A stretch of 64,000 nt of DNA, from the NCBI GenBank assembly GCA_973895155.1, contig OZ316891.1, positions 14,911,037 to 14,975,036 on the forward strand, in the 5' to 3' direction. A program made the position numbers and the translations under genes. This DNA is from Marsupella aquatica (Eukaryota; Plantae; Marchantiophyta). Of this stretch, positions 9,027 through 44,495 are shown piece after piece (position 1 is the first letter of the stretch; each line of letters begins with the position of its first letter). The notes beneath the pieces were generated by a model, which worked only from the letters and a program-made list of their open reading frames with translations, had not been told where the DNA came from and searched no databases.

Positions 9027-9371
9027 TGTTAGGATTTACTCTTAGGTCTAGAGTTACAAATGTACTGTAGTTAAGGCTAACCTTAGTCGCAGACTTGGTT
9101 AGGTTAGTCATGCTGTGCACACTCTATAACCAAGAGGTGTTTGCTTGGAGAGGGGGAACTCAGGCTCATTGTTACGGAGCTAGTTGAGAAATAGAGAGAG
9201 CTTGCGTTGTGGATGCTTGGTATGGCCGGTCGGCCTAGAGTGCAGTAAAGCTCATGTGTGTTCCCGTGGACGTAGCCTCATGTGGAGGTGAACCACGTAT
9301 CTCTCTGTGTCGAATTTTGTGTGTTGGATGGTTCATGGGCTTGCCGTTGCGATTGTCGTCTATGCTCAACA
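9027..9371 (+). repeat. Copia-1 3' LTR
   Basis: TGTTAGGATTTAC...GCTCAACA, following the PPT. Confidence 0.95.
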
Positions 9372-12181: not shown

Positions 12182-12188
12182 CTTTGTG

Positions 12189-12959
12189 ATGGCAACGGAG
12201 GAGATTGCCCATCTCAAGGCTTTGCTTGAGAAAATCTTAGTTGTGGCTGAAAACTCTGCAATTGAGATTACCACACTCAGCAAGGAGGTGACGGAGCTAA
12301 AGAATGAGAATGTCAAGCAAAAGAGGTTGATTAGTGATCTTCGATCTCAAACTCAGGAGAATGGTAAGCAACTCTCATTGCTTGCATCATGTTTTGGAGA
12401 CATGGAGAAGAGTATGTGCCCAGAGAAATCAGTGATACATGAGGCTGTAGGGGAGATTGAGGAGAAGCTCAAAACCTTTGCACAGGCTGCAAAACAATCA
12501 CATATGGAATTTGTCCAAGCCAAGGAGGAGGAGAGAAGAGCACTAGAGGAAGAACACAAGAACCAGCATGCAAGAGTCAGCAACTGCAAAATATCAGGCC
12601 TTGTTGAGGAGAAGAAGGAAGACACCAAGAAGGTAGCAATTTCATTCTTCCAATCTCAGATGAAAGTGCATGACCCTATCATTTTGCAAGCATATAGGAT
12701 TGGGCAAAAGAAGGGGGACCTTCCACATCCAATCTTGGTGAAGTTTGCAGCTGAATCCGAGAAAGCTAGAGTGATGGCTAATAGGAGCATGCTTAAAGGG
12801 CTAAGGATTTGGTTGGATGATGATCTGACTCCCACACAAGTCCAAGCAAGGAAAATTGAGCTTGAGAAGGTGAGGGTAGCCAAAGACCAAGGATTGGTAG
12901 CCTACTTGCGCAATGGACAAGCTGTTGTTACCAATAAGAAGAGAGTTGTTTCTAAATGA
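12189..12959 (+). CDS. LINE ORF1 (coiled coil + RRM-like nucleic-acid-binding domain)
   Basis: Open frame from ATG 12189; heptad-rich N-terminus, then ISGLVEE...AYRIG...PILVKF...IWLDDDLT, typical of LINE ORF1 proteins. Confidence 0.85.
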   Translation: MATEEIAHLKALLEKILVVAENSAIEITTLSKEVTELKNENVKQKRLISDLRSQTQENGKQLSLLASCFGDMEKSMCPEKSVIHEAVGEIEEKLKTFAQAAKQSHMEFVQAKEEERRALEEEHKNQHARVSNCKISGLVEEKKEDTKKVAISFFQSQMKVHDPIILQAYRIGQKKGDLPHPILVKFAAESEKARVMANRSMLKGLRIWLDDDLTPTQVQARKIELEKVRVAKDQGLVAYLRNGQAVVTNKKRVVSK

Positions 12960-12980
12960 TGGATTGGGACCTTGAGAGTC

Positions 12981-15900: not shown

Positions 15901-16175
15901 AACAAGGGAGATGGAAGGATATTGACAGGAAAAAGAGGGTTTGTCAACTATGTGATAGCTCTAGTATAGAGAATGAATATCATGTATTCATTGCTTGCAA
16001 GTTTTATGAGGGGGTTAGGATGGCATCTCAAATCTTGGTGAAAGATTTGTATGCATTGTTTGGTCTGCCCCCTCAGCAACTTGGAAGATATATCTTTGCA
16101 GTGGATAGGGAAAGGAGAATAGGTTTGGAAAATCTTTCAGGGCTCTCTAGGTTCATAGTTTCTTTGAGGACATAG
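12981..16175 (+). pseudogene. LINE ORF2 (APE endonuclease + reverse transcriptase) with a single in-frame stop at 15420-15422
   Basis: APE motifs WNVSG, TETW, GDFNAR, TIDY, SSHLP; RT motifs QAGFR, VDFSKAFD, GVIQGCPLSPTLF, FADD, YKYLG; C-terminal CQLC..ENEYHVFIAC. The frame resumes after the TGA. Confidence 0.92.
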
Positions 16176-22335: not shown

Positions 22336-24135
22336 TTAGCTCCGATGTCGCTAACTCCGACGTCGAGCTCCTCTATGGTCCAAGCCCTCGGAACGGCCAT
22401 ACGGTGGTGACTAAGTATGGGGAGAATAGTGGGCAACGAGGTGTTGCATTAGCAAGGGCAAGACGCTAAGCTGATGACGCACACTAGGGACTTAAACTTA
22501 CTAGCTTTGGGTTGGTCGGGTCATGGGAAGGGGCTGGGCTCAGGGTGGACCGTTCGGACCCCCGGGTGGATTTGAGTTGTGAGAGCTTGAGTGAGAGCTC
22601 CTCTTGGGCCCAAGGTTAACAAAGTTTAGTTCATGCGCAAGGGACGTTTTGCGCATAAGTTATGGTGTTGGCCAAGGTGCAGCCGTCCGAGACCCCTGGG
22701 TGACGACAGGTTCTGAGAGCCTATGCATGAGCATTGGATCGGTCTGATCACAACGGGCTAAGGCACTCCATCTTCGGATGTCTAGCTACAAAGTTATGGG
22801 CATAGCAAGTTAGTTGCATGCCAATGCAATGTGTAGGTTGGAGTCCAGGTTAGGGCCCAAATATAGGGGACCCAAACCGGTCCGGGGGTGGCAGGTCTCC
22901 AAAAGCACATATGAAGGGAGTGATGTCTTCATGGGGGCCAAGGGCAAGCCCAAGTCGTGAGCCACGACGGTCGCGACACCAAGAGGAAACGTCAAATTGA
23001 AACGACAATAACTTCTCAACGGGAAGTCCGTTGGGGGACTCTTGGATACGTTGGAAAGCTCTTGAAGAGGACTAGTGCATCCTTCTGATCTCAATTGGGT
23101 CTAGGGGTGAAATGGATTCTTGTGTTTTGTGGGGGCTATCTTGCCTGCTTGCCAAATCTTGCCAGCTTGCCAAATCTTGCCAAAATAGCAACCAAGCCAC
23201 ATTCAATTTCCCACAGAAGCTTGCGTTGGGGAGGCAAAGCAAAGTAGATCTGGAGGTTGAGTTCTAAGTGCACTTGGCCCCTAGACTATCAGTTGAGTGG
23301 GAACCTTGGAGTTGGTTGCTAGAGTCACAGTCAATCTAGTCCTCGGGGGCCTCAATGCAAGGGGTGTCCCTATGTCACGTGCAAAGTTTTGGGGGAATAA
23401 ACACCCTAAAACTTAAGTCAATAAAGGTTTTATTTACCCCTAACTTAATGGAATATTTCCAATTTTGATTTAAAAAAACTCTATGATTCTTACAATTCTC
23501 GAAATTGGATTAAAATAACCCTAATGTTCTTCAACAAAAATTTAAAAGTATTTCACTAAACCCAATTAAAAACCCTACACTTATTTGCGTGTGATGGGTT
23601 GGAAGAAAAGAAGTGAAGACCCCGGGATCTAGTCTCGACGTTGTAAGACAAGCTTTCGGACAAGCTAAGCTATTGGGCCATGAGCATGTCTTGGGGGCAA
23701 GGCGATTAGCCAATGACGGATAGAAAGTGGGGAGGCACGGGCAACACCCAAAGAGGTGTTGTTCTAGACAAACAATGGGTGTTGGCTCTGGCTTTGACTT
23801 ATGGCAAGGCCATGCGGGCCCGGGAGGTTCTATTTGCTGAGCTTGAGTTCTCTTTACCAATGTTTGTTGAGCTTGAGTTAGGATGCTAGTCTTGGAGAGT
23901 CTAGATCCTACGGGTTACTTACTGAGGTGTTTGGTTGTTTGTGCAGACAATGATGATCGATGTGCGACGGTCGTGTTAGGGAGCAAGTGCGACTTTGTAT
24001 GGGAGTTGTCGCTGGAGGTGCAATAGGTACCTAAGTGCTTGCTCCATGAGTTCTGTGTAGGCGTTCGGACATCAGGGGCACTTAGGGGAGGGTGTTAGGA
24101 TTGGTGAGAGCACTGGTTGGCAAGGTCCACCACTG
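22300..24135 (-). repeat. Non-coding dispersed repeat, copy B (inverted relative to 1047-2462)
   Basis: Its reverse complement aligns co-linearly, though diverged, with 1047-2435; it contains a MITE insertion. Confidence 0.75.
23342..23626. mobile_element. 285-bp MITE with 8-bp TSD
   Basis: TSD ATCTAGTC at 23334-23341 and 23627-23634; imperfect TIR CTCGGGGGCCTCAAT/AGTGAAGACCCCGGG; interior resembles 38636-38932 (ACCCTAATGTTCTT). Confidence 0.88.
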
Positions 24136-24817: not shown

Positions 24818-26453
24818 TAGAGTTATAAACATAGGTGTAATCTTAAACCATGGTTAATCCTCTTTGAATGTGCTGGCATCTTACAAAATGGGGACTGATT
24901 TGAGCTTGTGCTCAGCTTTGTACTGAAAAATACATGGTTAATCACAATAATCTACCAAAGGTGGGAGTGACTTAACCATAGTTGAAATTAGTGGCAAAGA
25001 GAAGCAAGACCTTGATATGTGCATGTTGTTGACAATGTTAGGATTTACTCTTAGGTCTAGAGTTACGACTGTACCATAGTTAAGGCTAACCTTAGTCGCT
25101 GACATGGTTAGGTTAGTCATGTTGTGCACACTCTATAAGCAAGCAGTGTTTGCTTGGAGAGATGGAACTCGGGCTCATTCTTACGGAGCTAGTTGAGAGA
25201 TAGAGAGAGCTTGTGCTGTGGATGTTTGGTATGGCCGGTCGGCCTAGAGTGCAGTAAAGCTCTTGTGTGTTCCCGTGGACGTAGCCTCATGAGGAGGTGA
25301 ACCACATATCTCTTTGTGTCGACTATTGTGGGCTAGATGATTCATGGGCTTGCCGTTGCAATCGTCGTCGATACTTAACAATTGGTATCAGAGCATGTCT
25401 GGGAGGTGACGAGGTCTTTTTTGTGACGGTTTTTCCAGCGTTCATTGTCGGTGTTACATTTGGAGTTTTGTCGCATGAAACTCGAATGTGTGTGGTTGAA
25501 CGAATAGATTAGTGAGAGGGCTTTCTAACGGTGGTTAGAACTTGCTGATCGGTATCCGTGGTGTGGAGGAATCAAAGTTTGTGTCAATCTGGAGTTTTTT
25601 CGTGTTCGATGGTATTTTGGGGGAGAAACTAGAGATCGTTTTTTCAACGGTTTGAGTTGTGCGGTGCGGGAGGCATCGCATGTTATAGCTCATGTTGGAC
25701 GTTAAAGCGAGCTGTTCATTTTGGTAGTTGAGTTGCTGTCGAGTGGTTACCGAGTGCGTCATGACGAGTGAAGGAGACGTTCAGATTTTTTCACAGGCTA
25801 TGGAGCTTGTTCTCATCTGAACCGGGTTAATCGTCGTCACGTCCAACTTGGAGGAAGAAACGCGAAGTGCTACGGCTCAATGTTTTGATCGCGGCAAGGC
25901 GGTCATTTTGAGTCCGAGATTGGCACTTGACGTGGAGTGAGTATGACACGACGGAAGATTTTTTCTCTGCTGAGCTCACAGATTGTGTCGGTGCAATTCG
26001 GCAACATTTCCCCGTCGGCGGTCATCATTTTTACTCGTGGAATTGGCGGCAACAAGCAACGTTGGATGTTGGCAAATTGTGTTTCCTACGGCAACTTAGC
26101 GCACCGCGGAGAGGTGAGGTGCGGCGACGACCTAGGGCACAAGGAAAAGACAAAGTTAGTGAACAGTAACTTTGTCCAGGAATTGCGGCAGGATTTTCAT
26201 AGCAACAGGGTTTCTAGGGAGACCCGGAGTGACCAGAGGGAGCCTCGCTCCAAGGGCGCCCCTAGGGCACCTCACTCCAAGAGCGACCCAAAGTGACTAG
26301 GGGGACCAAAATTTGTATAACTTTTCCGTCGAAGTTTGTTTTTGATTTTGGTTTTCAGTCTTGGACTCCTAGCCTCATGGGCTACGCGGCAATGATTAGT
26401 TTTGAGTTTTTTGAGAAGTTGTGAAAAACATTGTTTTTTTGTGATTTTCTCAT

Positions 26454-29400
26454 ATGAGTGATTCAGAGGAGATTTTCGAAGACGTGGAACTTGAAGCACG
26501 AGGATCACCGCAGCGGTTTGTGGTGGAGAGAGAGGAGCAGGAGGAAGAGCACGTGACACCGATACCATCACCTGTGCGACGAGTGGTGGAGGAAGCAGTT
26601 CTTCTACCGGAGCTCACGGTAGTGCCAAAGAAGAAGATGGATACGTTCAAGCTTGGGAGACCCAAGTATGAAGTGACAAAGTATGATGGGCGCTCTGACT
26701 ACTTGCTTTGGGAGAAGCAGGTGAAGGGAGTGCTCTATGCGTCAGGGATGGGCCAACTATTGAGCCCTCGTGAAGACGATGTTGATGAGAAACAATGGGA
26801 TCGCATGCAGGAGCAGGGAGTGTGGTGTGTTACACTCTATCTCATGCCTCCCATCATCAAGCAGTTGGGTGCACATAAGGATTGCATGTCCTTGTTTGCG
26901 GAATTGCAGAGCAAGTATCACCGCAAGTAGTTGTCAAACCGGCTCTATACTTCCTACAAACTGATGAGTTTCAAGATGAAGAAATCTGGTACGAAGTTGT
27001 AGGACCATGTGGATGTTTTCAACGACATGGTCATTGACTTGGAAAACCTTGGGGAGACTTTGAATGATGAGACGAAGGCTCTGCAGCTTCTCAGTTCATT
27101 GCCTCCATCTTACCAATCCCTATCATGGATGTTGTTGTATCGTGATAGGGATACCATTTCATACAATGACGTGGTAAGTTCTCTGCTTAGTGATGATCTT
27201 CAGCAAAAGATGCACATCACGTCACAACCTTCATCCTCTGGTGCTGCCCTCATTGTTAACCATGGGAGGAGTATGCAGCGACCAACTGGGGAGCGTAGAA
27301 CCCAGTTTAGATCTAAATCCAGATCTAAGTCCAGAGGTAAATCCCCTCAGAGAAGGCAGGTGACATGTTGGAAGTGCAACCAGGTTGGACACTTCAAGCG
27401 AGACTGTAAGGGAAAGGTAGCTAAATCTTCATCGACAAATGTGGCTAGGGCTGATGGAGATGCTGATTTACTCAATGATGAGTATGTATTATGAAGCCAA
27501 GGGTATGCTCTATGCACGTTATCTAGGAGAGCAAATGATGTGTGGATTCTTGATTGTGCTTGCTCTTTTCACATTTGTTACATTCGAGAGTTTTTCAGTT
27601 CTTACTCTGTTTCAAACGCTTCAGTTCTGATGGGAAATGATCACTTCTGTCAAATTGAGGGTATTGGGTCTATGAAGATTCAAATGTTTGATGACACTAT
27701 GCGCACAGTGTCCGGAGTCAAGTATGTACTTGGCATGCGTAAGAATCTGATTTCACTTGGTGTGTTGGATTCAAATGGTCATCAATGGAGCATTATTGAT
27801 GGTGAACTTCAAGTCAGGTCGGGAGAGACAATGATCTTGAAGGGGAGCAGACAGAAGAATTTGTATGTGTTGTAGGGCAATACTGTATATGGAGAGGCCA
27901 ATGTAACCAAGTCTCACGAGGAGATGACTAATCTGTGGCATTCACGGCTAGGCCACATGAGTGAGAAGGGTTTGGCTATCTTACGGAAGAATGGACTCAT
28001 TTCTAATTTGCAATCTTGTAAATTAGAGTTCTGTGAGCATTGCATTCTTGGAAAGCAGCATCGTCGTGCTTTTGGTGTTGGAACTCATCGTTCCAAAGCG
28101 GTTCTTGAGTACATACATAGTGACGTGTGGGGTCCATCCCCGACTCCCTCACACTCTGGAAATTTGTACTATGTATCATTTATTGACGATTACTCAAGAT
28201 TTGTGTGGATTTATTTCATGACGCATAAGTCTGATGTCTTATCCATTTTTAAGAAGTGGAAGGCCCAGATGGAGAATCAGACTAGAAACACGGTTAAGTA
28301 TTTGGATACAAGGGTGAAGAGTCTGAGGTCTGACAACGGTGGGGAGTACACTTCAGTGGAATTTCAAGAGTATTCTTCAGAACAGGGGATAACTTGCCAT
28401 CTCACCACAGTTTATACTCCACAGCAGAATGGTGTCGCTGAGAGGCTTAATCATACACTGTTGGAGCGGTCACAGAGTATGTTGAGCCAATCAGGTTTAC
28501 CACAAGAATTTTGGGCAGAGGAAGTGATGCATATGCTCTCACACCAAAGCAAAATAGGACCAAGTTGGATCCTACCTCCAAGAAATATGTTTTTCTTGGG
28601 TACCAGAGTGGTGTGAAAGCCTATAGGCTATGGGATCCTATTGCCTGTAAGCTCGTTGTCAGTAGGGATGTTTCCTTCAATGAATCTAGATTATTGAAGG
28701 AGGGGGAGAATACTCAGATCTCCCGTACTGACAAAGGAAAATCTCCTATCCTGGATCTCGTTGAGGGGGAGATTGGTCATGAGGTCCATGACCGGAGAGA
28801 AGAAGTTGCTCCAAATATGGAGTTGGTTCCTGTGCCAGAGGAACCAGAGGAGTTTGTTGATGCTGGTGAACAGCAAGTGGATGCTACTGAGCTTCAGATT
28901 GTACCAGCACACATGGATCAACCAGAGTCATCGGCTAGAAGAACATCTGGTCGCACTGTACGCGCTCCACCAAGGTATGGACAGTGGGTTGATTCATCTC
29001 AATTGCAAGAGGAGGTTTTGTTACTGACGATGAGGGTGATGGGTTGATTTTGGAAGAAGGGGAACCTTCTTCATTTCATGAGGCAAGTGCTTCTAAGGAG
29101 AAGCAGGAGTGGACTGCAACAATGCAAACGGAGATGCAGTCACTGAAGTACAACAAAACTTGGGAGCTTGTCAAGCTGCCTGAGGGACAGCAAGTGGTGG
29201 ACAACAAGTGGATATACAAGCTAAAGGATCAATTCACGGGAGGTGGATCGAAGGTCTACAAGGCTAGGTTGGTAGCCAAGGGATTCACACAGAAAAAAAA
29301 TGTGTGGATTACAATGAGGTCTTCTCACCAGTTGTTAAGTACTCAACAATACGGCTATTGTGTGTGCTTGTTGTAATGTTTGATCTGTTGCTAGATCAGA

Positions 29401-30530
29401 TGGATGTTGTCACAGCCTTCCTCTATGGCACCTTGGAAGAGGTGATCTTCATGAGACAGCCGCTAGGTTTTGTGAAGAGAGGGCAAGAGGATTTGGTTTG
29501 TAGATTGCTGAGATCCTTGTACGAGTTGAAGCAGTCACCAAGACAGTGGAATAAGCGGTTTGATGATTGGATTCGTGCACAAGGCTTTCACAGGAGTGTG
29601 TTTGACCCATGTGTGTATCTGAAACCGGTGAAGAATGTTGTCTTTGGGTTCATTGTTTTAGTACTTTATGTGGATGACATGCTTATTGCGGCCAAGGACA
29701 GGTCTGAGATTGTTAAGCTCAAGGCACTACTAAGTGCAGAGTTTAAGATGAAGAACTTAGGGCCAGCTAAGAGGATTTTGGGTATGGAGATCACTAGGGA
29801 CTTGGAGGCTGGCAAGCTATGGTTGACGCAGAGCAGTTATGCGATGAAGGTAATCGCAAGGTTCAACATGGGGGATAGCAAGCCAGTAAGTACCCCGTTG
29901 GCTCCACACTTCAAGTTGTCATCAGCATTCTGTCCTACGGATGAGACAGAGAAGGGGCTGATGTCAAAGGTTTCTTATGACAAGACAGTGGGGAGTCTCA
30001 TGTATTTGATGACCTACACTAGACCTGATCTTGCCATGGCTATGGGCAAGGTGAGTAGGTACATGTCGAATCGATGCTGACTATGCACAGGATCTGGATC
30101 GAAGGAGGTCAACAACAGGTTATGTGTTCACACTAGGAGGTGGATGCATAAGTTGGAGATCTACTCTACAGAAGTGTATTGCCAGTCTACTACAGAAGCG
30201 GAGTATGTTGCAGCAACGGAAGCATCAAAGGAAGCAATTTGGTTGGATAGACTTATCACTAAGATGGGATTGCCACAGGGGAATGTGAAGCTCCATTGTG
30301 ATAGTGAGAGTGCACTCCACCTTGCTGTGAACCAGGTGATGGATAGCAGAGTGAAGCACATCGACGTCAGGTACCATTTTATCAGGCAGGCTGTGTCTGA
30401 TAATATGTTTGAGCTAGTCAAGATTGACGGTAAATTCAACCCGGTTGACGCATTTACCAAAGTGATTCCTTTGGAGAGTTTTTCTAGACACCGTGATGCG
30501 TTGCAGGTTTTGCAATTGCCTCACAAGTAG
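26454..30530 (+). pseudogene. Copia gag-pol polyprotein, disrupted
   Basis: Same motifs as copy 1 (CWKC Zn knuckle, WILDC, RSDNGGEY, YTPQQNGVAER, YVDD, KHIDVRYH), with stops, frameshifts and deletions near 28520 and 30071. Confidence 0.95.
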
Positions 30531-30720
30531 GGTTACTTAATATTTGTGTAGATACTGAGATATGCTCTTGCTCATTCCTTGTATAGGCTACGGCTTAGTT
30601 CTGGTCTACTCTCGTATAAAGAGGGAAAAACCCTTTTGGTTTTTCTTTCTAGAACTTCCCGCTGAGCAATCATATTGGTAGCAGTCTTTACCCTCTCCTA
30701 GACTAGAGTCAAGGGGGAGA

Positions 30721-30818
30721 TTGTTAGGATTTACTCTTAGGTCTAGAGTTACGATTGTACCATAGTTAATTGTTGGGATTTACTCTTAGGTCTAGAGTTA
30801 CGATTGTACCATAGTTAA
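30721..30818 (+). repeat. 49-bp tandem duplication of the start of the Copia-2 3' LTR
   Basis: 30721-30769 and 30770-30818 differ by one base. Confidence 0.92.
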
Positions 30819-31982
30819 GGCTAATCTTAGTCGCTGACATGGTTAGGTTAGTCATGTTGTGCACACTCTATAAGCAAGCAGTGTTTGCTTGGAGAGATGG
30901 AACTCAGGCTCATTCTTACGGAGCTAGTTGAGAGATAGAGAGAGCTTGTGCTGTGGATGCCTGGTATGGCCGGTGGGCCTAGAGTGCAGTAAAGCTCTTG
31001 TGTGTTCCTGTGGACATAGCCTCATGATCGAGGAGGTGAACCACGTATCTCTCTGTGTCGACTATTGTGCGTTGGATGATTCACGGGCTTGCCGTTGCGA
31101 TCGTCGTTGATACTTAACAGACAGTAGATGGCTTGATGCATATAATGAGGGTGCAGTGTGCTAAACCCCTTTAATGCACACTTTAAGGCAGCTAGGGAAA
31201 CCCAACTAATACAAATCATTTAACTTATGTTTACTTAGGTACAGTAAAATGGGCATGTTAGGGGTTTCTGCTAAATAAGAGGTTTAGGGTGCACTCCCAC
31301 CCACACTTAGGATTAGAATAACTGGGAGTAAAGTATCATGATTTTTAGAAAATTAGCTTTACAAAACTTGACTATTCCCTAAGTCTTCCAACTGTATTTT
31401 TGGCCTAACTTGTTTCCTACCCCCCAGATCAAGTTTTTTGGTCCTTTTGATAGGGTGAAAAGTTTCAAACAGTTATTGTCAATTCTGTCAGTCAGAATTT
31501 ACTGCTTGATAGCTCTCATGCCTATCCTCCTTTGATACTTCCCACCATAGCAATGGCCTCCAAGAGAAAATTCAGCTGATCATCTGAATTTCTTTTGCTT
31601 GCTTGGAGGAGGTTTTCTGCCGTGACAGGAAACAGTAACAGGAAACAGGAAATGGTAACAGTAAAATAAGTGAGGAAATTTACACAATATTTGCGACATC
31701 CATCAATAAAAAGGGTGTATAAAAATGCCGAGTATATTAGTAGCGCCTGGCGCTACTTTAAAATGTGTGTTACATGGTAGCAAAAACACAAAGCCCGATG
31801 ACAATACAAAATCTTAAGAGATACCATGAGCAGAAAAATGGCTAAAGAATTGGGATGTAGTAAGCTTGCAAGAAAACATGGAGAACCGAGACTACAACCT
31901 AACACCTTCAATCTCCGATGGCGGTAGCGCCAGGCGCTACTATCGCAAAAGTCTTTAAGAAGACTCCATCTTTCAAACAATC

Positions 31983-32453
31983 TCAGGACGTCGATGAATG
32001 ACACTCATCATCGACTCCCGCATTGAAGCGATCCTCGTCTCGGCGAAATCCATCCTCTCGCTCAACAAAAAAACGCAGTCCTAGAAGGCGACTCCTCAGC
32101 CTGCAATTTGGAATGTTGGAGTCAGAAAATCCAACTCGCCCGGTCCATTGTTGAATGCCCCTAAAAAACGCCGTCCATCCAACCCTATAGACATCGGAAG
32201 GATCCAGATCGTGAATAGAGAACCGTTCTCTAAAAGACCGGGGAGGAGACGAATCAGGGCATGATTCTGGTTTTGCTCGAAGGCTTATCCCCTCGTCCAA
32301 GGCCAGCCATAGTCGATTCCTCTCCATTGAGGTGACAGGGTGAGGAGTCTCATCAATCGGGACCTCTGAGGCAAGCAAATCAATTGAAGCTTTGCCTTCC
32401 AACTTTGTGGGGCCGGAAGTTCTCTCACACAAGACTTGCTTTCCTTTCTCCAT
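31983..32453 (-). CDS. Putative accessory ORF of the MULE (156 aa, unknown function)
   Basis: ATG-initiated ORF inside the element, on the same strand as the ParB-MTase gene; no recognisable domain. Confidence 0.35.
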   Translation of the reverse strand: MEKGKQVLCERTSGPTKLEGKASIDLLASEVPIDETPHPVTSMERNRLWLALDEGISLRAKPESCPDSSPPRSFRERFSIHDLDPSDVYRVGWTAFFRGIQQWTGRVGFSDSNIPNCRLRSRLLGLRFFVEREDGFRRDEDRFNAGVDDECHSSTS

Positions 32454-32855
32454 GGTCTCTGGATCAATGTCTATGCCGCGCTAAACGCAAAAGAGCTCCT
32501 GGAAATCCTCGAACATCGGCGATGTCAAACGGAGAGGGTGTAAAATAGAAGAGGGTGTCGAAATACCTACCGTTGCGAAGGAATTCAACCTAGGGAAACA
32601 GGTATGTATGGTAGTCAAGGTCATTAAGGATTTTCATCGTACATCAGTACATGTACTTGCAGTTTGGAAAACATTACACTACACTTCACATCAGAAAAAG
32701 ATATGCGGAAGCTAATACCTTTCCCACTTTGTATTTATATAAAATTGATGCGTACAATAAGTAGCGCCTGACGCTACTATTTTGGAGGAGGTAATATGTT
32801 TTAAAATCATGAATATATAACTAATCTAATTTAAACTAACCTAATCCAATGTAAT

Positions 32856-33168
32856 CTAATCTCCAGATTCCGACTCACTACTCTCCGATCTATCCGTACT
32901 CTCTGCTTCATCGTCGATAAATTCATTTCGTTCCATATCATCGACAAATGGATGACGGATGAACTTTCTATCCAAACCACGTCTCAATCGCAAGCCCTTA
33001 TTCTCCCAGGTCAGGGTTCTTCTACTCTCTTCTTTGCGAGCGGCATACTCTGCGTATGAAGGCAATACAAATGGTTTCTCAAGGGTAATTAGGACTTTGC
33101 TTGAAAATTTCCTTCACAGATTGAACCTCTCGCGAAGATTCCACTCTGACCTACGAGTCAGTTGAAAC
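32856..33168 (-). pseudogene. Possible small accessory ORF or exon with an acidic C-terminus
   Basis: Frame reads FQLTRRSEWNLRERFNL*RKFSSK...LPSYAEY...EFIDDEAESTDRSESSESESGD, with one internal TGA. Confidence 0.3.
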
Positions 33169-33258
33169 ACTAAGTACACTTCGAGAGATTCCAGTAATTC
33201 AAGTATGCAAGATAAAAAGAAAACGGAAAGTTAAGTAATGTAAAGGAGCTTACGGGCA

Positions 33259-36200
33259 TTACTCAGAAGAATCTGAATCTTCCGTTTCTCCTTCTGAATT
33301 CCCCTCATCCTTTTTCTCTCCTTCTTTCTGGACATCAATCCCGGCCTCTTCATCAGCTACATCGTCTTCCTCTTCTTCGGAATCAAAATTCAGAACAGAT
33401 CAAACTTTATCTTTCACTTTTTTCTCCATGTCTTTGCTCGGACCAGCCTCACTCAATTCTTTCGGGAGGAGCAAGTCAGTGTATGTCCTCTCTGCAATAG
33501 AAACAAATTCCTTGCGATTCTCAATCCCAAGGATGAAACGGCCACAAAAATCACCAGCCACAAATGTACTTCCTGACCCAACCGTCCAGTCCATAATAAT
33601 ATCTCCCGGACGAGAAATTAACTCCAGGACAGACTGCATGAAGCCAACCGGTAGTCGTGCATTCCCTGCAAATGCAGCTTCTTGAACAGGATCCTTCTTT
33701 AGAGTCTGCAGCCCAATGAGGTTTGTGATTGAAGGGTCCTCGGTTGAAGACAAAGGCTTGAACTTTGAATATTTGGGGACCCTAACCTTCGATGTAACTC
33801 GACTAAAGATATCAAGTCTTAAGGTGAAAACCTGGAAAATAAACAGTATTCAATATGAGATTTGGTAACATATATTAATAGCGTCTGGCGCTACCCAAAA
33901 GACCCTGTGTACACGAGGACATTTACATGTGAACATCAAACATGAAATGAGATCTATTAATAGCGCCAAGCGCTAGCAAATGATTCTCTTGATTCAAAAG
34001 GACAATTACCTAACAATCGCTTTTGGCCATGTACATTGGGGCACCCATAACAACGTTGAGCGTTTTGAGGCACTGGAACTTTTGGGAATCTTGGCTGGCC
34101 GAAATTACTTGGGAGATCTGGTCATACTCCCCAGTGTGCAAAACTGCTAACAACCCATCATCGGCAAGAAATGGGTCCATTGCCCGAAAGAAAGAGCCAA
34201 CCATTCGGTGATCCGGTACATTCCACTTTGGCGATTTTTGGTGAAGCAAAGAAGGTCGTAGACCTGTCGGTAGGTAGACAAAACCCGCATCCACCCCAAA
34301 AGATCTCAACTTGCCTCCCCTAACTACCCCTTTCTCCCGGAGACCAAGTGTCACTAAGTCTTTTCCCCACTTCTCGACATTCGTCACCCACCTGGGTTTA
34401 GTCTCTTTTGTAAAAATAGAATCAAAAAAGTCCATTAGACTGGACTCAACAAACATATGACGGCAAACTTTGGACTTGAATTGACCAACTTCTCGTTGGA
34501 TGCCAGTACATGCATACGAATCTCTAGAAGAAGAACCGAGATCAAGAGTTTTCTTCTTCTTTTTTCTGGTGCTTGTGGCATCAACCGGACGATCAATGTT
34601 GGTATTTGCAGGAGGAGTCTGCTCTTGGGTAGCATCGGCAGCCTCAGTGTTTGCTTCAGATTGATCAGGGGTAATGGTCGTCTTTGCATCTTGAGTTTCT
34701 TCTCCCTCTGATTTCCTACCCCCTGTAGAGAATCGAAAAGGTAAGAACACTGGGAAAACTATAACAGCGCCCGGCGCTAGCCAAACATTTACTTTCTAAA
34801 TTCTCGTGTATGAGTATACATTTAATAGTTTAAAGTAGCGCTTGGCGCTAACCAAAATCAATGCAAACAACTAAGTGAATTTCAGAGGAAAAGATCAAGA
34901 AGAATTGCAAAAAGTCATATAACTTACGTTTTCTTCCGGATCTCGTGGACGGGCTATTCAATCCTGTATCAACTTTTACTTTTGCGCAAGGTCTTCGGCT
35001 CCTGTCAACATGTAAGACTTCAGTCTCACATATTTTTTGAAGCTCCACTGCAGAAGCTTCAACGTCTCCCACCAATCCTTCCTTCATCTCAGACAACCAT
35101 TTCCGAGGAACTAAAGATTTGGACAATTTCAAAAAGGCATCTTTCTCAGATTCATCAAAAGGTGTATCCCACTTATCAGTATCGAGGTACTAGGGACAGT
35201 TTGTTCGCTCCCAAACAGAAATGTCACGTGGAGGATTGGCTCTTTCTGCAGGATACATCGAGTAAACCTCACTGAAATCATCCCCATCCATGACCGACCA
35301 CCTCTGGAATGCAGGAGGATAAGCCCAAAAATATTCAGGAGAATTGCTCTCCATGGACAAGAAGAACCAATAAAGGTATCTCTTTGCCCGCTTCTGGTTT
35401 CGGGAAGAAAAATCTTCTTTCTCCCCGTACTTTGACGCCCACATTGTGTTAAAAAACTTTGCCTTGACTGTATCTCCATAACTTTTGAAATCATTGCAAA
35501 TCGTCTGCACTAAAGCATCAAAAGTTTCTACACCTCCTGTGACAAGTCGTTCCGGAGGCATGACAGATTGAACTTGTCTGAGAGCAGTCTGCATCATCCC
35601 CATTGAAATTCCTTCGATCCAACTCCACATGTGCAAAGTGTGACACCATTGTTTAACTGGTTCGTCATTCACACTCGGCGGATGGAAAAATTGCTTGCGA
35701 AGTTCGGGCGTGCAATGCGCCACAAGAAGAGTGGAATGCAACTTTGGGTCCAAAGCTGAGACGGCAGTAAAGAGACGAGAACGATCCATCGTGCAAACCA
35801 CAGCGTCTACTTTCCGTTCTCACTTGTTTTTCTCTGTCAGCGTGTACATTTCCGCACATGTTGACAGAAAATCTTCGAATTTGGGGCTAAGGAGTGGAGT
35901 GATCTTTGAGGTCTTCACGCTCCATTCTTTTGTGGCCTCCTTCATCATTGTCGCATGACACTTGGTGACCTCCTCCTTTGACCACGGCCTCCCTTGAGTG
36001 TTTGCAGTCGCCATGTCCAATTTGAATTGCATAGAGTATGACTTGATCTTGTTCTCGCACAAGATGTACACAAGGGCCTCCAAAGGCATCTTCTTCATAT
36101 ACCAAGAGCCTTTCCTTGTCTTTGCGCGAATTGCCTCAAAGCATTTGAAGTTTCTGGCGTCAATTATCGTCTTGTAATAATCAAGGTCATGGGACAGAAT

Positions 36201-37056
36201 TTGACTAATTCTGTCAGCATCGAGGATCCACGACGGTTCTACAACGGCTTGCCCCAATCTGTATACAACCATTTGTTAGCGCCAGACGCTAACCAAAATC
36301 CCACAATTGAAAATTTGTCCAAATCAAAGAAAATGACCAAACTTACTGATTGACAGTGTGCATGGCGGCTTCAATCTCAATAAGAGAACCTCGATCTCCC
36401 TTGAACACAGTGCATAGCACACAAGGGTGGTACTTGATATTTTCGGGGTTCTCTTTTATTACCTGCGACCAGGAATATAGACGATGATTCCCGTTGAACA
36501 CACAAAACATCTTATCTTTTAAGACAAGGAAATCTGGATCTGCTTCACAGTCCGCTTCAAATTTCTCATTCTGGACAGTCCAGACAGCATCCAAACTCTT
36601 GCGGATTTTGGGGGTACAAAATTGGATGACGCCTTTAGAAACAGCGGGTTGCACGTAGAATCGCATCGCAATGGAGGAGTTGTAACCGGAACTGCGAAAT
36701 GATTCTTTTAGCTTCTCGATTGAAGCGCTCTCCTTCTGGAGAGTCCAAACAACTTCCATATTGACCAGGCGACAAAGCGGTATACGCGGAGGGTCCTTGG
36801 GCTCTCCTCTGAAATTAGTGTCGAGCGACATTGCATGTTTGGCAATCACATCTCCCATCGCTAGCGACCCTTCACACCCGTCTTCCATGATGAAATCACT
36901 CGAATTCTCCATGACACCTCGTCTCTGCGTTGGGAAAGTCTGCGCAGAGTTCCGAAGAGAATGCGATGTAGTCGAGCGAGTAACGCGTCGTGTGTAAATA
37001 GAACCAGCGAACGATGTCTCCGATGTTTGAGAATTACCTGGGGAAGTGTTGTCCAT
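33259..37056 (-). pseudogene. ParB/Srx-like domain + beta-class N4C/N6A DNA methyltransferase-like fusion; ~1108 aa in 4 exons (37056-36347, 36258-34928, 34722-34010, 33831-33259), with 4 premature stops
   Basis: All three GT-AG introns preserve frame (3327 nt in total). ParB-like FCVFNGNHRLYSW at ~36470-36505. MTase motif IV-like VDAGFVYLPTG..W..FFRAMDPFLADDGLLAV precedes motif X/I PVGFMQSVLELISRPGDIIMDWTVGSGSTFVAG..GRFILGIE, which is the beta-class order. In-frame stops at 35820, 35190, 34010 and 33400; acidic tail. Confidence 0.82.
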
Positions 37057-37484
37057 CTCGGGATAAAGAGTCTTTGGCCCTAAAATTTGGAGAGTTCTCA
37101 GCCACTCACAAAGGCCTGCAACGTACTGTTGCAACCAAATAGATACGACCCACGTCCGAAACAGCCAGTATGGAGACCGTTTTCCTGCAACAGAATGACA
37201 CGACAGCAAGATCAGATTTGTCAAATTGACCTTTGACAGGAAAAAGATCCCAAAAAGGCCGACAGCTGACTTAAATATGAATGTTCCATGATGAAAAATA
37301 TCAGGTAATCGAGCAATCGAACCAAAGAGAAAGGGACAGTTGGCATATAGTACTGACGTGGCTACTCAAATGTAACAAAAAATCTCATAATTAACATTCA
37401 TTCAAGAGGTAAAAATGGTCACACAGGCATAAAGTTACCATTACAAATATCCGTTGGACAGACAACTCGGAGGATAAACATTAA

Positions 37485-37912
37485 TAGCGCCCGGCGCTAT
37501 CATAAACATCACTCCTTCTAGACCAAAAAGTACACATATTTTCTTTTGAGTCGACCCTGAAATACTAGTAATCCACTGAGTTTCAATAATAGCGCCCGAC
37601 GCTATTATTGATTGTTGTCTAACATTCATAAAATCTTTCAAATGTTCCATCATATACATCAGAATCTCTTGTTTTTTCATTTTCCGCAATAATAGCGCCA
37701 GGCGCTATCAATGGAGAGTATCAAACAAAGTCATGTTTTGCATAATTCTGATTTTAAATTTCACGCTTTTGAACGATGATCTGGTAGGGTTTTTGCTAGC
37801 GCTTGGCGCTATTATTCTCCGTTGTGAAAATGTCCGTTAAATTAACAGAAACATTTTGTTTTCAACGGTCATCCGTCGCCATTTATCTCAAATTTATCCG
37901 TTGAGTTAACGG
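37485..37912. promoter_or_regulatory. Putative bidirectional promoter region: four phased palindromes plus an AACGG/CCGTT cluster
   Basis: Palindrome spacings of 105, 103 and 104 bp; five AACGG/CCGTT motifs in 37819-37912; lies between ATG 37056 (-) and ATG 38029 (+). Confidence 0.5.
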
Positions 37913-38028
37913 TAAAGTTCTAAATATTTTTTGCGTTTGAGTGTGGTTTCTTCGTTCTTGATGATTTACTTGAGGGAAATAATAAACCGAGGCTGGAAAC
38001 ACCCTTACCATTTTTTCATTCTGTCAGA

Positions 38029-41000
38029 ATGTCACGGGTTATTAGGGTAAAATGTCCTGAAACGGGAGACGTGATTAGCGTTCCTGTGACTTACGGAGAT
38101 GGTAATCAGCGTGTGAGCGAAGATTATCTTTGCGGAAGGTTTGATGTTAGGAGGAAAGACATTGAAAGCTTAGGGACAGCTGCCAAGGGGGTAGTGAATT
38201 CTTTTTACATTTTTGGTCAAAAATGGTGGGAACTGCACTGCGGTGTCGAGTACACGCTTTTCCTCCGAGGAAAAGTAGTGAAACTAGAGACGGTGGATGC
38301 ACCAACAGAGGTCATTGATCTCACGTCTGATGGCGATGACTCTTCCCCTGTCTCTCAATTGCCGATTGACATTAGGAACATCAAGCGTGAAGAGTGTCAG
38401 TTGTTGAAGAATTCATTTCCAATGCATCAACGTAGTACCTCAACGGAAGACAGTGGAGGTGACAAGCTTCTTAAATCTCCTTCTCTTGCTATAGTTTACA
38501 GAAGGAGCGCATTTGACGCCCTTCTGAAATTGACTGGTCAAAGTGAGCTATCTCGATTTGTACAATCAGAAACTTTCAAGCACGAGCAAGTAGAATTTCT
38601 TCCCAAAACTTACAACGGCAATGTCATATTTGAGCCTCGGGGGTCTCACTATATAGGGACCTCCCCATCGCCTGCGACGTTTTGAAGCCTAGGACCCCCT
38701 AAAATGTAAGAATTTTTAAAAAAAAATTAACCCCTATAAAGTTGGAATATTCTTGGAATATTCTAAAAAATGGATTAAAAAGACCCTAATGTTCTTATAA
38801 GTCTCAAAATTGAATTTAAAAGACCCTATTGTTCTTCTACAAAAATTCTTAAGTCTTCCCTTAGAACCAATAAAATGACCCTATCCTTCGTCGCACGTGA
38901 TATGCCATTTTTGTGGAAGTGAAACCCCCGAGATTTGAGCTTCCGCCTGTCAATTGTGTGGGTTCAAAGGGGAAGCATCTCCTTAACATGGACCGTTTGA
39001 AGGATTGCTATCTCTGGACTTGAATTATTCCTACTTCTGCAAATGTTTTGCCGAAGAAGATGTGGGGGTTTGGTAAAGTCAGTTGTAGCGGATCACTTGA
39101 ATGCCAAAACAAATCATGCAAGTTTTATACCAAAACAAATGGTAGGAATTGTAGCTCCTGGGAAGGGACCCCCAAGTTGGGAGGCCAACATTGTCCAGGA
39201 AAGTTGATTGATTCAGGAGGGATTGTTTGTCGGTATTGTCTTCAACTTCCATTCTGTTTGGACTCCTGTTCCACAAAAATGTTTTACATGTACCCACAAG
39301 TTCTCCTGGATTTGGCGACAACGCAACATATGTCACACCTTGCAGTACATATGGGTGTCCATAACCATCCGTGTCGAAAGGTCTGGTCTAGAAGTTCGAA
39401 GATGATAGCGGTCGAAGAGATTCGGAAAGAGCATTTGAAAAATGCGATCACTGGATCTCTTAAGGATGCACTAGATGAATCTATCGATGACATCTCGAAG
39501 ATGGAAGAGAGTGAGATTTGGCAATCACTTATGCTTGTTTCGACTCCGCAGAAGTTCTCTGCCTTGTTTAAGAGTGTCCGGAAAGATCAGGCCGGGCGAG
39601 GAGACCTCGAATATCTGGTTCGGATGCAGAAGAATGTCAGGTTCCCGTTTGTTCAAAGGTATCTACTTCCAGGGCAAGGCTCTAAGGAGGACCGAGCTCA
39701 TATTTTCAAAATGATGATCAAAGGGCATGGATCCGGAGTCGATTTGTTGCGACAGATGAAAAAGGGTGGACCCCTCGAAGGTGCGTGGGTGAGTTTTGAT
39801 GTCATGAAACGAATGTCAAAAGATTGGAGTACTTTTAGCGCCCATGTTTATGACCATAACTATCGAGCTTTATGTACAATATTTACGTGTGAGCTGAAAG
39901 CGGAGGACACTGAATCTCTCGAGAAAGCATGGAGATTAATGATTGAGGTCGCTTTAGAAAATGGGGTAGATGATGTTCAAATTCATGGATTCATGGCTGA
40001 TAATGCTCAGTCAGGGAGGCGTGCGGTCAGAAACGTTTTCTTTGGGGGCCATCCAAATCCGGAGAAAGAGAGATCGGATGCTTTTCATTTTTACCAATCT
40101 TTGCACCGCCATTCTATCGAAGGAGTGCTTGAAGACAAACGTTTTGAGCATCGCCTCCTCTGGGATAAGCTCAGAAATGCATCAACGTTTGTCAAAGCTT
40201 ACAGGATTTCCCGAGAAATTGATTTGTGGTGGAGATCTGGCATGGCAATTGCATTCCCGGGAAGCTTCGGATGCTGCAGGGATGGATCTCTTGGTGGGTT
40301 GTAAGATGGCAACAATGGGGAAATTTTATTCGACTTGTAAGTATCACCATTTTTGACTTATTGAATAGACACTTCCATACTAGCGCCTGACGCTATTATT
40401 AACACCTTCTTTTTCTTGATTCTCTCAGCGTTTTGGTCAGCGCCTGGCGCTACCTTTAATTGATACATATTGTTGAAGAATATCAACTTATCTTCCAAAA
40501 GTAGATTTTGAGATTTGACAAACTCTGGCCGTCCTGCAGAGCAAAAGTGCACAAGAAGGAGGGATGATTCCTAATTGCACTGGATCTGAGGCAGTTCATG
40601 GTATCATGAAAGCTTGGCAAGGGAAGAAAACTATCGGATTATTTGAGGGTTGTAAAATTGACCACAATCGTGCAATCTCTCAAATTGCTGCTTATACTGC
40701 CTATTGGGATGGGTTACATAGAGGAACAGGTCCTACGGTATTTGAACTAGCTTTCCGTTCAGCGGACCTGGCTGGATCCCCTCAATTGTTCGAAGAGGCT
40801 TCTAATTTGCTACTAGCTAATGCGGCTGAATTTGATTTGGAGAGGAGTACTCCATTGAACGGTGATTTTGTAACCAAATCTATCAAAAGAAAAGGTCCAG
40901 CGATAGGGAATGTCTCGGCACAAGACTCCCATCGTCATGACACCATTCTGATAACAACACCGAATACACGGGGTTTGAAACGGAGAAATCTGAACTCGGC

Positions 41001-42051
41001 TCAGTTTTCTCATATTCCACCAAGTGTTCCTGAGACACCGATCGATTTGACTGGGAGTGAGGACCTGAGTGACTTGCCGGACGCATCTGCTTCTGGTCCA
41101 GGTGAAGAATTTTCCACATTACCAGAAGTCTCTCAAATGGACCAAACTCCAGTCCTCCCTGACACGTCGCTTTTGGAGTCGGACGTTGAACCTGGGTCTT
41201 GGCATCTTCGTCGAATTTCAAGACTTGGGCCTGGTCCTCAGTGTAACGGGACATTGTCAAGTAGATGCGATCGTGATGAGTGTCGAAACCGGATTAAGAA
41301 GGTTGGATATCCTTCTAATGCTGGAGTGATCGAAATTGTTGCGAAGGGACATCGCGTGTTCAGGAGTGAACCCATGCCGAGTTCGTGTGGTTTTGCCCCA
41401 ACGGCAGTTGTTGGAAAAGCCGCCCACATCGAGGCATCACTAACCTGCCTCCTTATCATTTTCCTTGCCAGTACTAACAGGAACACATTTGTCAAACTTG
41501 GAGTTATGTTTCCTGGAAGAACAGGGTGTTGCAATCTTCAGACAACACCACCAAAGCATGCCTGCCAACCCTACGCCTTTTGACTTGAGAATCAATATTG
41601 ATGTTTTTCCTGAGAAGATCAATATGGCACAAATCAACATCCGTGTTCAAACTAGGAATGGGCGCCCAATGAACCCCAGATCAAATCTTACTCAGGAATA
41701 CCATAGAAGGATCGAATCTGCTGCGAAGGAAACAATGACTCTTATCACAGAATTGGATGTTTCCTCGGGGAACTCATATGGGAAACGATTACTATCCAAA
41801 CACACGCTCATCTAAGGACGGCAAACACTTATTGGGTGCAGATTTGCGTATTCCCTTGTTGCTCTTGTGAGGACTTCTTTCGCTGACATTCTCGAGGAAG
41901 ACCTTTCATGCCTTGTAAACATTTGTACTGGGTTTACAAAACAATCTTCAAGCTTGATCCATTGGATTCGGTCTTACCAAGCCAGCCAATTTTGATTGTT
42001 GGAGAACTCCAGTACATCATAGGAAGGAGGAATTCGCATGGTTTAGAATAA
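38029..42051 (+). pseudogene. MULE-family transposase (GCM/WRKY-like Zn domain, DDE core, SWIM finger), disrupted by a MITE, stops and frameshifts; intron 40337-40539
   Basis: CSGSLECQNKSC...CRYC...C...HMGVHNHP; D1 in WVSFDV; D2 in GFMADNAQ..AVRNVF..DAFH (CxxH position); WISWWVVRW; E in CTGSEAVHGIMK; SWIM CSCEDF...PCKHLYWV at ~41856-41935. Removing the MITE restores the frame (IFELPPV). Confidence 0.85.
38636..38932. mobile_element. 297-bp MITE with 8-bp TSD, inserted in the transposase gene
   Basis: TSD ATTTGAGC at 38628-38635 and 38933-38940; TIR CTCGGGGGTCTCACT/AGTGAAACCCCCGAG (14/15 match). Confidence 0.93.
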
Positions 42052-42439
42052 TTCTTTTCAGTCTACTAGACGTTGAACGGGCATTTTTGGGTTGCCGTTT
42101 TTAACGGTAACAAATATTTTGTTAGCGGTCGGCGCTAGTAAAAGGCTGGCATTTTGTAATGTTGTTTTATCTGGCAACAAGTATTGGAGTCTCAAATCTT
42201 CCCAAATATCTTGAGTTTTGCTAGTGTTCATTTGGGAGAGATGACTCCAAGCAAGCATCAAGACATTTGATAGCTTTGTTGGGACCAATTGAAAACTCTG
42301 AAAACTGCAATCTCTACAGTGGAAAGTGCACATGTCATCGATGGCATACATGGTCCTTTCCATCAATGGCCCTTTGTAGAGGTTCTTCAGAATTTGATTT
42401 CCAGCCAATCTATTACTATAATACCCTATACTGCCAAAA

Positions 42440-44495
42440 ATGTCCATCAACAAATCCCGGATCATTCCTCTCTATCTCAATGGGGGAATTTATCCCGACT
42501 GGCTCAATGATACGGGCTGCCGAATCTCGGAGACAGGTGAAATCACTGAATACCTGGGATGCCCAATTGGGTACAACATCCGCCCTTCTCACAAAAACAA
42601 CTTCCTTCTAGGGAAAGTGAGAAAGCGATTGTTCCACTGGAACAATAGATGTCTTACTGTGGCTGGAAGGGCAATCCTACTGAAACATGTTCTGAGAGTG
42701 ATCACGACTTATCACCTCATGATACTTGAACTCCAAACAGCTGGATATCTTGACCTTGAAAAACTTTGTAGACGATTCTTGTGGGGAACCTCTCTTGAAA
42801 GGGGGCACAAAAAGGCTCTCATAGCCTGGCAGGAGATTGCAACACCTAAAGGAAGCGGAGACTAGGAATCTTACCTTTCAAAGACCAGGCCCAGGCACTG
42901 AAGATGAGACACGTCTCCAAGCTGATCAGTGGGGACAGTAGAGAGTGGGTGACCATTGGAAACGACATCATCAAAAAGGCACTGAAACGAGGAGCGAGAA
43001 TAAAAGAGAAGCGGTGGTGGACACCCACTGACACAATTTTACTAAGCACTGAGCTATGTGTGAAAGGCTCTCCCACTCTGAAGACGCTGCTCAAAGGGTG
43101 GTTTGAAAACAACCAGCGCCTGAAATTCAACTTTGGTTCTGGTAAGCTGTCATCCCATTTATCTATTGAGCACACCCTCCTACTGTATTCTAGGAATAAC
43201 CAGGTTAGTGACCAGGAAGGTACTTTGCTCAGGAGATACCTTTCATCCAGGGGGATCCGTAAGGTGATTGACCTGTGGTCGCAACAACACGGTTGGAGCG
43301 AAGGTGAAGCCATTAACAACAGTGAGAGTAAGGAGCAATAGACCTAACGGCCTTGAAGCCTTCACTAGATTCTACGACCTGCTTAAACAGTCTACGGGAC
43401 TGGGTGAACATAACCTGTCGGAAAGCACTGAATGGCAATGGGATTGGAAGGCGAAGGACAGAGGTTGGACTTTCCCCAACAAAACCTGGGTTAACTGCTC
43501 CCTTCCCCTTTCACAAGATGTTACCAAACTTAACCGGAGATGGGGGGGACAGAATTGCACATTGGACTGATGGAGACTATACTGGAAGCAACTTTATGGT
43601 GGCATGACTTTACCGAAGGTCAGGTTCTTCATTTGGCGGCTAATCAACCACTGCTTCTTCACAAATGGGAGAGGCAGCTATTGGAAGGTCTGCAATGGAA
43701 TGTGCAACAGATGCAAATTGGGATTTGAAAATACTGACCACCTTTTCTTTAGCTGCAGCAAAGTTTGCAAGAGGTGGAGAGAAATACAATGTTTGATGCA
43801 GGGTTCTTTTACCTTCTCCATAGGGTACACGTCACTCTTTGACACTATCCATAACGCTTTTCAGAATCAAAAAAGGAAATCGGGTACTATGGTTCTCCTG
43901 ATGGAACTTTGTAATAGCATCTGGAAAGAGCGAAATGCTGCCACTTATTCTCACTTCTTAGGTCGTCTCCCCGGATGGTGACACTTTGGTACACTGAAGC
44001 TTCCTTGAAGGCTATGATTGACCTGTGTCACTCCCCGAGGAAACACAGACAAATTCAGGAAGCCCTTGAACAGGTGCAGAATGTTCTTAAACCTTGGGAA
44101 CAGACTGACAGCCCGGTTTCACTCAACCCCACCAATGATGATGATGAAGCATGCAACATAACAGCCAATTGCAGGCTAGGAAAGACTCAAACTTGTGAAG
44201 GTCCTTGGGCACATGAAGTGGACTGAACATATTTGGAGTGGGCCTATTAGCCAGAGTGAAGTTGGTAGATTTGAGATTACTCAGGACACTAGGAGAAAAT
44301 ATCAGAATTATCCCTATAGGGGAATGAGTAGATGGGACTTGGATACGGACACCCTGAGGAGGATGCTCCGGGACCCTTGGTTGGACTAGATTTCTGGCGT
44401 TTTTCTGGCTGTTTGTCGCCGCTGGCCCCGACTTGTGCTTTCTGGGTGGTCTTTGCTCCCGCGGTGCTTTTTCCCATGTGTGGGGGAAAAAAAAC
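42440..44495 (+). mobile_element. 5'-truncated, frameshifted L1-clade LINE (RT C-terminus + zf-RVT)
   Basis: EYLGCPIG, RLFHWNNRCLTVAGRAILLKHVL, RRFLWG, IAWQEIATPK..GLGI, PKVRFFIWR, CNRC..ENTDHLFFSC; A-rich tail at ~44487. Confidence 0.88.

Follow-up and report, generated by a model that had tools for sequence, protein, structure and literature searches.

A Mutator-like element of the liverwort Marsupella aquatica with its own palindromic sites and a methyltransferase-fold accessory protein: a candidate anti-silencing module

To our knowledge, Arabidopsis VANDAL and Spm elements are the only transposons for which an accessory protein with sequence-specific anti-silencing activity is understood in detail. 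VANDAL elements are Mutator elements with an extra gene, VANC, and a family-specific short motif that is concentrated in non-coding regions and varies between related families (PMC5735166; PMC10398659), and the sites of VANC21 in VANDAL21 lie in introns, intergenic stretches and terminal non-coding regions (PMC5735166). Here, we present a Mutator-like element (MULE) of the liverwort Marsupella aquatica that shares this architecture and resides in a 64,000-nucleotide stretch of DNA (NCBI GenBank assembly GCA_973895155.1, contig OZ316891.1, positions 14,911,037 to 14,975,036 of the forward strand), which was analysed as a whole and is referred to as the window; all coordinates are window positions. 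The element, with a minimal extent of 31537-42327, combines a forward-strand transposase gene, a reverse-strand accessory gene and 15 copies of a dyad-symmetric site. A MULE with an accessory gene and its own motif is a known kind of element, while the type of accessory protein appears to be unreported, featuring the fold of an amino-methyltransferase (amino-MTase) and possibly a ParB-like N-terminal part. Searches of the open literature directed at this combination yielded no paper describing a Mutator element with ParB-like or amino-MTase cargo. By analogy with VANDAL and VANC, our tentative reading is that a dimer of the accessory protein occupies the 15 non-coding dyads, perhaps spreads from them, and through this occupancy or spreading would keep host silencing away from the element with no methyl mark written.

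Proteins with a ParB-like N-terminus and a beta-class amino-MTase C-terminus are frequent in phages and prophages as ParB-N6_N4_Mtase fusions (10.1101/2025.10.10.680097; e.g. our loci L002, L003 and L009), and the liverwort protein would share this order of parts. Unlike these fusions, it measures about 1200 aa, has a 440-aa middle without known family, is encoded by a spliced gene in a eukaryotic DNA transposon and has lost the catalytic motif. Its MTase half is nearer to stand-alone phage enzymes of the DLPYG type (L005, L015 and L016) and its N-terminal half is nearer to the eukaryotic family DUF3723; as the halves resemble separate groups, the two parts may equally well have been joined independently or been captured together as a phage fusion. 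The bacterial clamp proteins KorB and VirB are likewise encoded by mobile elements and have palindromic sites scattered over them, and VirB, a clamp of the ParB family, counteracts H-NS silencing (10.1101/2024.02.16.579611). The KorB operator also has TAGC...GCTA arms, probably by coincidence, and unlike the liverwort protein, which is known from sequence, KorB and VirB have demonstrated CTP clamp activity. As in ParB/parS systems, a palindromic site is clustered on the element that encodes the protein, the 15 dyads being the candidate sites of this protein. On the features tested, the accessory protein would appear to belong neither to the active amino-MTases nor to ParABS.

The dyad, TAGCGCC-N-GGCGCTA, is present in 15 copies and confined to the element, and window-wide pattern scans thus bear out what an earlier sequence-only reading of the locus had claimed for a 15-bp palindrome. 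The core AGCG-n5-CGCT has 15 occurrences in the 64-kb window, all within 31741-42137, and no further site within two mismatches of TAGCGC-n3-GCGCTA (12 arm bases) was found elsewhere in the window. A looser pattern (spacer of 2-3, one mismatch) recovered the 15 sites inside the element and one isolated imperfect match at position 99, and had no occurrence in 100 dinucleotide-model simulations of the element. Across the 30 half-sites the consensus arm is W-W-T-R-N-TAGCGCC, and the two arms mirror each other about one central base, with AGCG invariant and a purine at position -2 in 30/30. The dyad therefore spans about 25 bp, more than the 15 bp initially recognised, and because it is so long its binder is likely a dimer. 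The repeat families around the dyads reach no further than the motif itself and a small number of adjoining bases, and some dyads have extended arms, with seven additional pairs at 37590.

All 15 dyads are non-coding (P ~7e-7 given the non-coding share). Five lie in introns 1-3 of the accessory gene (dyad 8 at 36277-36291 in intron 1, dyads 6-7 at 34765-34850 in intron 2 and dyads 4-5 at 33879-33975 in intron 3), two in the transposase intron (dyads 13-14, 40381-40452) and four, at a spacing of about 104 bp, in the divergent intergenic spacer between the start codons (dyads 9-12, 37485-37811). The remaining four are at the ends or downstream: dyads 1-2 (31741 and 31925; 31741-31939) in the left terminal region, dyad 3 (32762-32776) in non-coding sequence 3' of the accessory gene and dyad 15 (42123-42137) in the right terminal region. 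The form of the site differs from that in VANDAL elements, where a 9-bp motif is arranged in same-orientation tandem arrays (PMC5735166; PMC10398659).

A metagenome scan returned one relevant locus among 89 pattern matches, a 2078-bp contig (L001) with a related transposase that has 66% DNA identity to the window over 702 aligned bases of a transposase exon. Three related dyads (contig positions 1111-1300) stand in the intron equivalent to that of dyads 13-14, although the intron sequence itself does not align with its window counterpart. The half-site is identical, including the outer T-R, and the centre has 0 nt in place of the 1 nt of the window element; dyads of this type did not occur in 300 simulations. 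The dyads have been kept in L001 with another centre, and we therefore conclude that selection maintains the site while its geometry varies between families. Scans of viral contigs and of prokaryotic genomes returned no relative. As to substitutions within the arms, C has become T in nine of the ten half-site changes that fall at positions 6-7, a pattern that may reflect either tolerance or a deamination footprint; changes never hit the CpG in the 30 half-sites of the window, and a CpG change was seen in one of six half-sites of L001.

The C-terminal part of the accessory protein has a permuted (beta-class) amino-MTase fold, as had been proposed from the sequence. The Pfam N6_N4_Mtase profile matches the motif-I half alone (E 7.7e-9, above the cut-off), in one of the 12 reading-frame pieces of the element that were scanned, and further matches include PHROGs DNA methyltransferases and, in the PDB, DpnA, CcrM and MboIIA. 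Motif I reads DWTVGSGST (aa 999-1007), and both this motif, which binds S-adenosylmethionine (SAM), and the subsequent GIE are intact. A global alignment to an MTase profile, built from 11 of the 17 phage methyltransferase reading frames fetched, shows the permuted order, with the motif-IV strand (aa 825-834) preceding motif I, and sets VDAGFVYLPTG on the sidlv..DpPY strand; an ungapped register drawn by eye pairs DAGFVYLPTG with the phage sequence DMVLCDLPYG (the DLPYG/DLPYN subgroup formed by L005, L015 and L016). At motif IV the protein thus reads YLPT and not DPPY or DLPY, with the catalytic acidic D replaced by Y and the aromatic Y by T, and the conserved lysine of HPTQKP is lost, the place reading RLP.

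The same YLPT residues are present in P0157, a relative with 71% identity. Comparison of four sequencing runs over 34150-34380 (40 variants listed and five more; run X5 contributed a single contig) showed 33 of the 40 listed variants, at 34181-34343, to be synonymous against an expectation of 26% (P 2e-13), as were all ten listed variants in codons D825-G834. The MTase domain is under purifying selection, the YLPTG codons included. Since YLPT is common to P0157 and its codons vary only synonymously, it is not the decay of one copy, and since purifying selection holds it constant from copy to copy, the domain is probably a pseudo-enzyme and not a writer of N4-methylcytosine (4mC) or N6-methyladenine (6mA). 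The earlier proposal that the protein marks DNA in this way is not upheld, as motif IV is YLPT in the window, in the copies compared and in P0157. In the rotifer enzyme N4CMT, replacing the two motif IV positions abolishes activity (PMC8885841). N4CMT and the Marchantia proteins DN4MT1a/b (10.1101/2021.02.12.428880) are likewise bacterial-type permuted amino-MTase folds in eukaryotes, but they belong to the host as domesticated genes, retain SPPY and have proven activity, whereas here the domain is transposon cargo with YLPT. A precedent for a retained inactive amino-MTase in a transposon is found in DIRS1 retrotransposons, whose enzyme was judged inactive in all copies (PMC4738411). Chromatin-modifying cargo is also described as TET/JBP in fungal DNA transposons and SET-domain MuDR/HarbingerS elements in oomycetes (PMC12730594), and as DNMTs in dinoflagellate and charophyte retrotransposons (PMC5890265); these and DIRS1 represent other element classes and enzyme clades, and in the portions at hand none combines a ParB-like domain with its own dyads.

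The four-exon, 1108-aa gene model of the sequence-only reading was reproduced, with exons on the reverse strand at 37056-36347, 36258-34928, 34722-34010 and 33831-33259, GT..AG introns and four internal stops. Exon 1 encodes a low-complexity N-terminus followed by a predicted ParB/Srx-like (DUF3723-like) domain with the motif GNHR (36492-36481), exon 2 a region of about 440 aa without known family in Pfam or PHROGs (stops at 35822 and 35192), exon 3 a linker with a basic run and the first half of the MTase fold (YLPTG at 34276-34262), and exon 4 the second half of the fold (motif I at 33591-33565) and an acidic stretch (stop at 33402). A fifth exon absent from that model is likely at 33150-32856, where in-frame GT/AG sites would add an acidic FIDDEAE tail and bring the total to about 1205 aa. 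The stops at 35822, 35192 and, in this likely exon, 33116 are sense codons in other copies among the variants listed, and P0157 has a glutamine in place of the stop at 34012. When long relatives of exons 1 and 2 were sought with a word index, 0 of 297 and 0 of 4413 candidates qualified, blanks that are weak because most relatives in the collection are exon-sized pieces, and the exon 3 search found one relative among 32 candidates. No element piece matched a plant-transposon accessory family in Pfam, with no direct comparison to VANC sequences made, and no ParA or ATPase partner was matched among the 12 pieces.

The N-terminal motif GNHR (aa 189-192) is of the GxxR type that defines Box II of ParB (10.1101/2025.10.10.680097), a source that also names sulfiredoxin as the commonest eukaryotic ParB-fold protein. 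In a protein language-model atlas the neighbours of exon 1 are eukaryotic DUF3723 clusters (0.95; 189/256 features), and rank 26 is a cluster annotated with ParB_N (0.91). Together, the motif and the language-model look-alikes make the ParB fold a weakly supported lead; the motif named in the ParB/Srx-like assignment made earlier is present, and a matching profile is lacking. The accessory protein had no match to Pfam DUF3723, exon 1 gave only chance-level matches against phages and plasmids, and we found no paper pairing DUF3723 with ParB in the literature searched. DUF3723 genes, the closest language-model look-alikes of exon 1, are conserved cargo of the Starship transposons, which are fungal tyrosine-recombinase elements for which the portions available to us report no MTase fusion (10.1101/2021.12.13.472469).

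The accessory and transposase genes lie head to head with start codons at 37056 and 38029, 972 bp apart, in agreement with the roughly 970 bp given previously. The transposase pseudogene (38029-41815, forward strand, one intron at 40337-40538) has a Cys/His-rich N-terminus and the core motifs VSFDVM, MADNA, DAFH and GSEAVH, which we take to be the D, D, DxxH and E motifs of the family. A search of 1.84 billion proteins with its core yielded 264 relatives at E <=0.001; of the 19 that were looked up, those carrying an organism name come from liverworts, two from Calypogeia fissa and six from Riccia sorocarpa. A model based on 81 sequences (predicted local distance difference test score, pLDDT, 81.5) had as its best Foldseek match ISCth4 of the IS256/Mutator group (E 1.4e-4), followed by Hermes, and the top atlas neighbours are MULE clusters (0.90-0.91). 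The Pfam MULE profile matched one of the 81 relatives (E 0.0057) and not the window protein. On the modelled fold and these neighbours, which uphold the assignment made from the sequence, the enzyme is classed as an RNase H-like DDE transposase of Mutator/IS256 type. Relatives share the conserved Cys/His-rich N-terminal region, which may be akin to GCM domains. One distant relative of 1010 aa, P0137, has an additional N-terminal region with a Cys...His pattern reminiscent of an OTU-type protease.

The window transposase is broken by a 297-bp miniature inverted-repeat transposable element (MITE), a stop and frameshifts, and together with the stops in the accessory gene this agrees with the view that this copy is dead. 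The MITE (38636-38932) is an unrelated high-copy element with the 8-bp duplication ATTTGAGC and is missing from other copies, where the joint skips 305 bases in 4/4 runs. It has CTCGGGGG termini, its 8-bp duplication is hAT-like in length, and a weak 37-bp match is present at 23495.

Contigs from four of six public DNA runs, representing two organisms, were aligned to 30500-43500 and tile the element at 84-98% identity. Between 31.4 and 42.2 kb they add up to roughly 5-100x the depth of the right flank in 4/4 runs, a figure that is not a copy number, and in the runs of both organisms the element forms a multi-copy family. No RNA dataset was among the holders listed, a blank that has no bearing on expression. 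Diverged contigs cover 37488-38141 (intergenic dyads into the transposase), 37204-37903 and 36769-37124 (the accessory start). Contig depth and the inverted similarity of the ends give the minimal extent of 31537-42327, so that the element delimited earlier as 31690-42200 is confirmed and its limits were too narrow. The left degenerate terminal region (31537-31856, forward strand) matches the reverse complement of the right one (42032-42327, reverse strand) at 185 of 281 aligned bases, and its score of 82, compared with a median of 30, is the highest of any non-self match across the window; with the dyad removed, the score of 42.5 does not exceed the control maximum of 50. No convincing target-site duplication of the 8-11 bp Mutator type was found around the element, the ends of which are not fixed, with a long interspersed nuclear element (LINE) fragment adjoining the right one. 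A 9-bp candidate (31423/42456) was discarded as its right copy falls within the LINE reading frame. The 5'-truncated fragment (42430-43980) abuts the right side of the element and may conceal its true end.

Observed/expected CpG is 0.76-0.77 for both element genes, compared with 0.77 in a neighbouring host gene region encoding a basic helix-loop-helix (bHLH) transcription factor, 0.40-0.45 in two copia copies of the window, and 0.09 and 0.42 in two LINEs. This gene-like content fits a long-term escape from methylation. The placement of the dyads, which resembles that of VANC21 sites, and the gene-like CpG content therefore favour an anti-silencing module, in this case proposed only and built on a ParB-like and MTase-fold protein in contrast to VANC. 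The sequence-specific self-protection module suggested previously retains its site anatomy and multi-copy family, and its DNA marking is not supported. Several observations weigh against this reading. The ParB fold lacks a profile match in Pfam, PDB sequences and PHROGs, a profile of four phage ParB sequences gave the accessory protein a probability of 1.3%, ParB_N is found on just 11% of the members of the sole atlas cluster bearing it, a single-sequence fold of exon 1 yielded no usable model (pLDDT 31), and no helix-turn-helix was identified in the accessory protein, with exon 2 matching no family. The local MTase profile match is limited to the motif-I half, and the motif-IV register comes from the global alignment with low column confidence. 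No single contig bridging both reading frames in another copy was present among the contigs listed, where linkage runs through overlapping diverged contigs, and the dyads of L001 were seen beside the transposase only, the 2-kb contig being too short to show an accessory gene. High CpG content may also mean youth instead of protection.

Part of the same evidence points to the transposase as the binder, through its Cys/His-rich N-terminal domain, with the dyads serving end recognition and self-activation and the accessory protein acting elsewhere, for example in MURB-like integration. Each inverted end bears one dyad at the corresponding place (31741 and 42123), as expected of a transposase site, the only distant locus seen keeps its dyads beside a related transposase, the N-terminal region is conserved among the relatives, and the AtMu1 Mutator transposase alone binds and demethylates its own family (10.64898/2026.08.24.746577). 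However, 12 of the 15 dyads are internal, whereas the AtMu1 transposase peaks at terminal repeats, and the internal pattern resembles the sites of the VANC accessory proteins; we thus consider this explanation rather unlikely, though it is the main alternative. The version originally put forward, in which an active atypical amino-MTase is recruited to the dyads to deposit 4mC, 6mA or an RNA mark, would account for the intact SAM motif I and GIE and for the strong purifying selection on the domain, and finds a parallel in the common phage fusions, four of the 17 phage MTases fetched having a ParB-like N-terminal GxxR segment. With both catalytic positions of motif IV altered not only in the window but also in P0157 and all listed copy variants, and the HPTQKP lysine replaced, we regard it as quite doubtful.

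Nothing in this analysis links the dyad directly to either element protein, and it might be the site of a host transcription factor or chromatin protein gathered by the element, with the accessory gene as unrelated cargo. But the remaining 53 kb of the window, host genes included, has no dyad, and a centre of 1 nt in one family and 0 nt in the other with the half-sites kept is a better fit to a co-evolving, element-encoded dimer, which makes a host factor improbable. Hairpins in RNA or single-stranded DNA, acting as splicing or export signals, would suit the seven of 15 dyads that are intronic and the extended arms of some dyads. The other eight lie outside introns, the centre of 1 nt (0 nt in L001) is too short for a loop, and three intronic sites have a change at arm position 6 that in two yields a C-A mismatch on the transcribed strand; hairpins therefore seem very improbable. 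Returning to the accessory protein as binder, an unlikely but more specific form of this reading is a eukaryotic nucleotide-dependent clamp like VirB and KorB, in which a ParB-like dimer would load at the parS-like dyads, with the 1- or 0-nt spacer setting family specificity, and spread, and the SAM-binding pseudo-MTase would serve as a base reader or as a decoy against the host 5-methylcytosine machinery. If this were true, the DUF3723 proteins of Starships would be a fungal parallel.

Other features of the element and the window were recorded. A 165-codon open frame on the reverse strand (31983-32480), between dyads 2 and 3, is a candidate third gene; it has no Pfam match, and four of the five listed variants alter the residue (40 of 1870 rows of copy variants were listed). 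The bHLH exon used as the gene-like CpG reference lies at 18018-18800 on the reverse strand. The LINE with a CpG value of 0.09 (12078-16175) is near-complete, with open reading frame 1 and an 820-codon endonuclease/reverse transcriptase frame, and is preceded by a 181-bp tandem array (11366-12181). The window also has a pair of Ty1/copia copies related at about 92% identity (4370-9371 and 26304-31119), copies resembling solo long terminal repeats at 2700, 25036, 57233 and 58679, and a diverged inverted duplication (70-73% identity) at 1048-2288 and 22557-24134.

The family represents an independent anti-silencing candidate from an early-diverging plant lineage, with prokaryote-type parts and a sharply defined site. 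Should its ParB-like domain indeed load and slide, it would provide a case of a ParB clamp on eukaryotic chromatin, and the family suggests a testable function for DUF3723, the conserved cargo gene of Starships.

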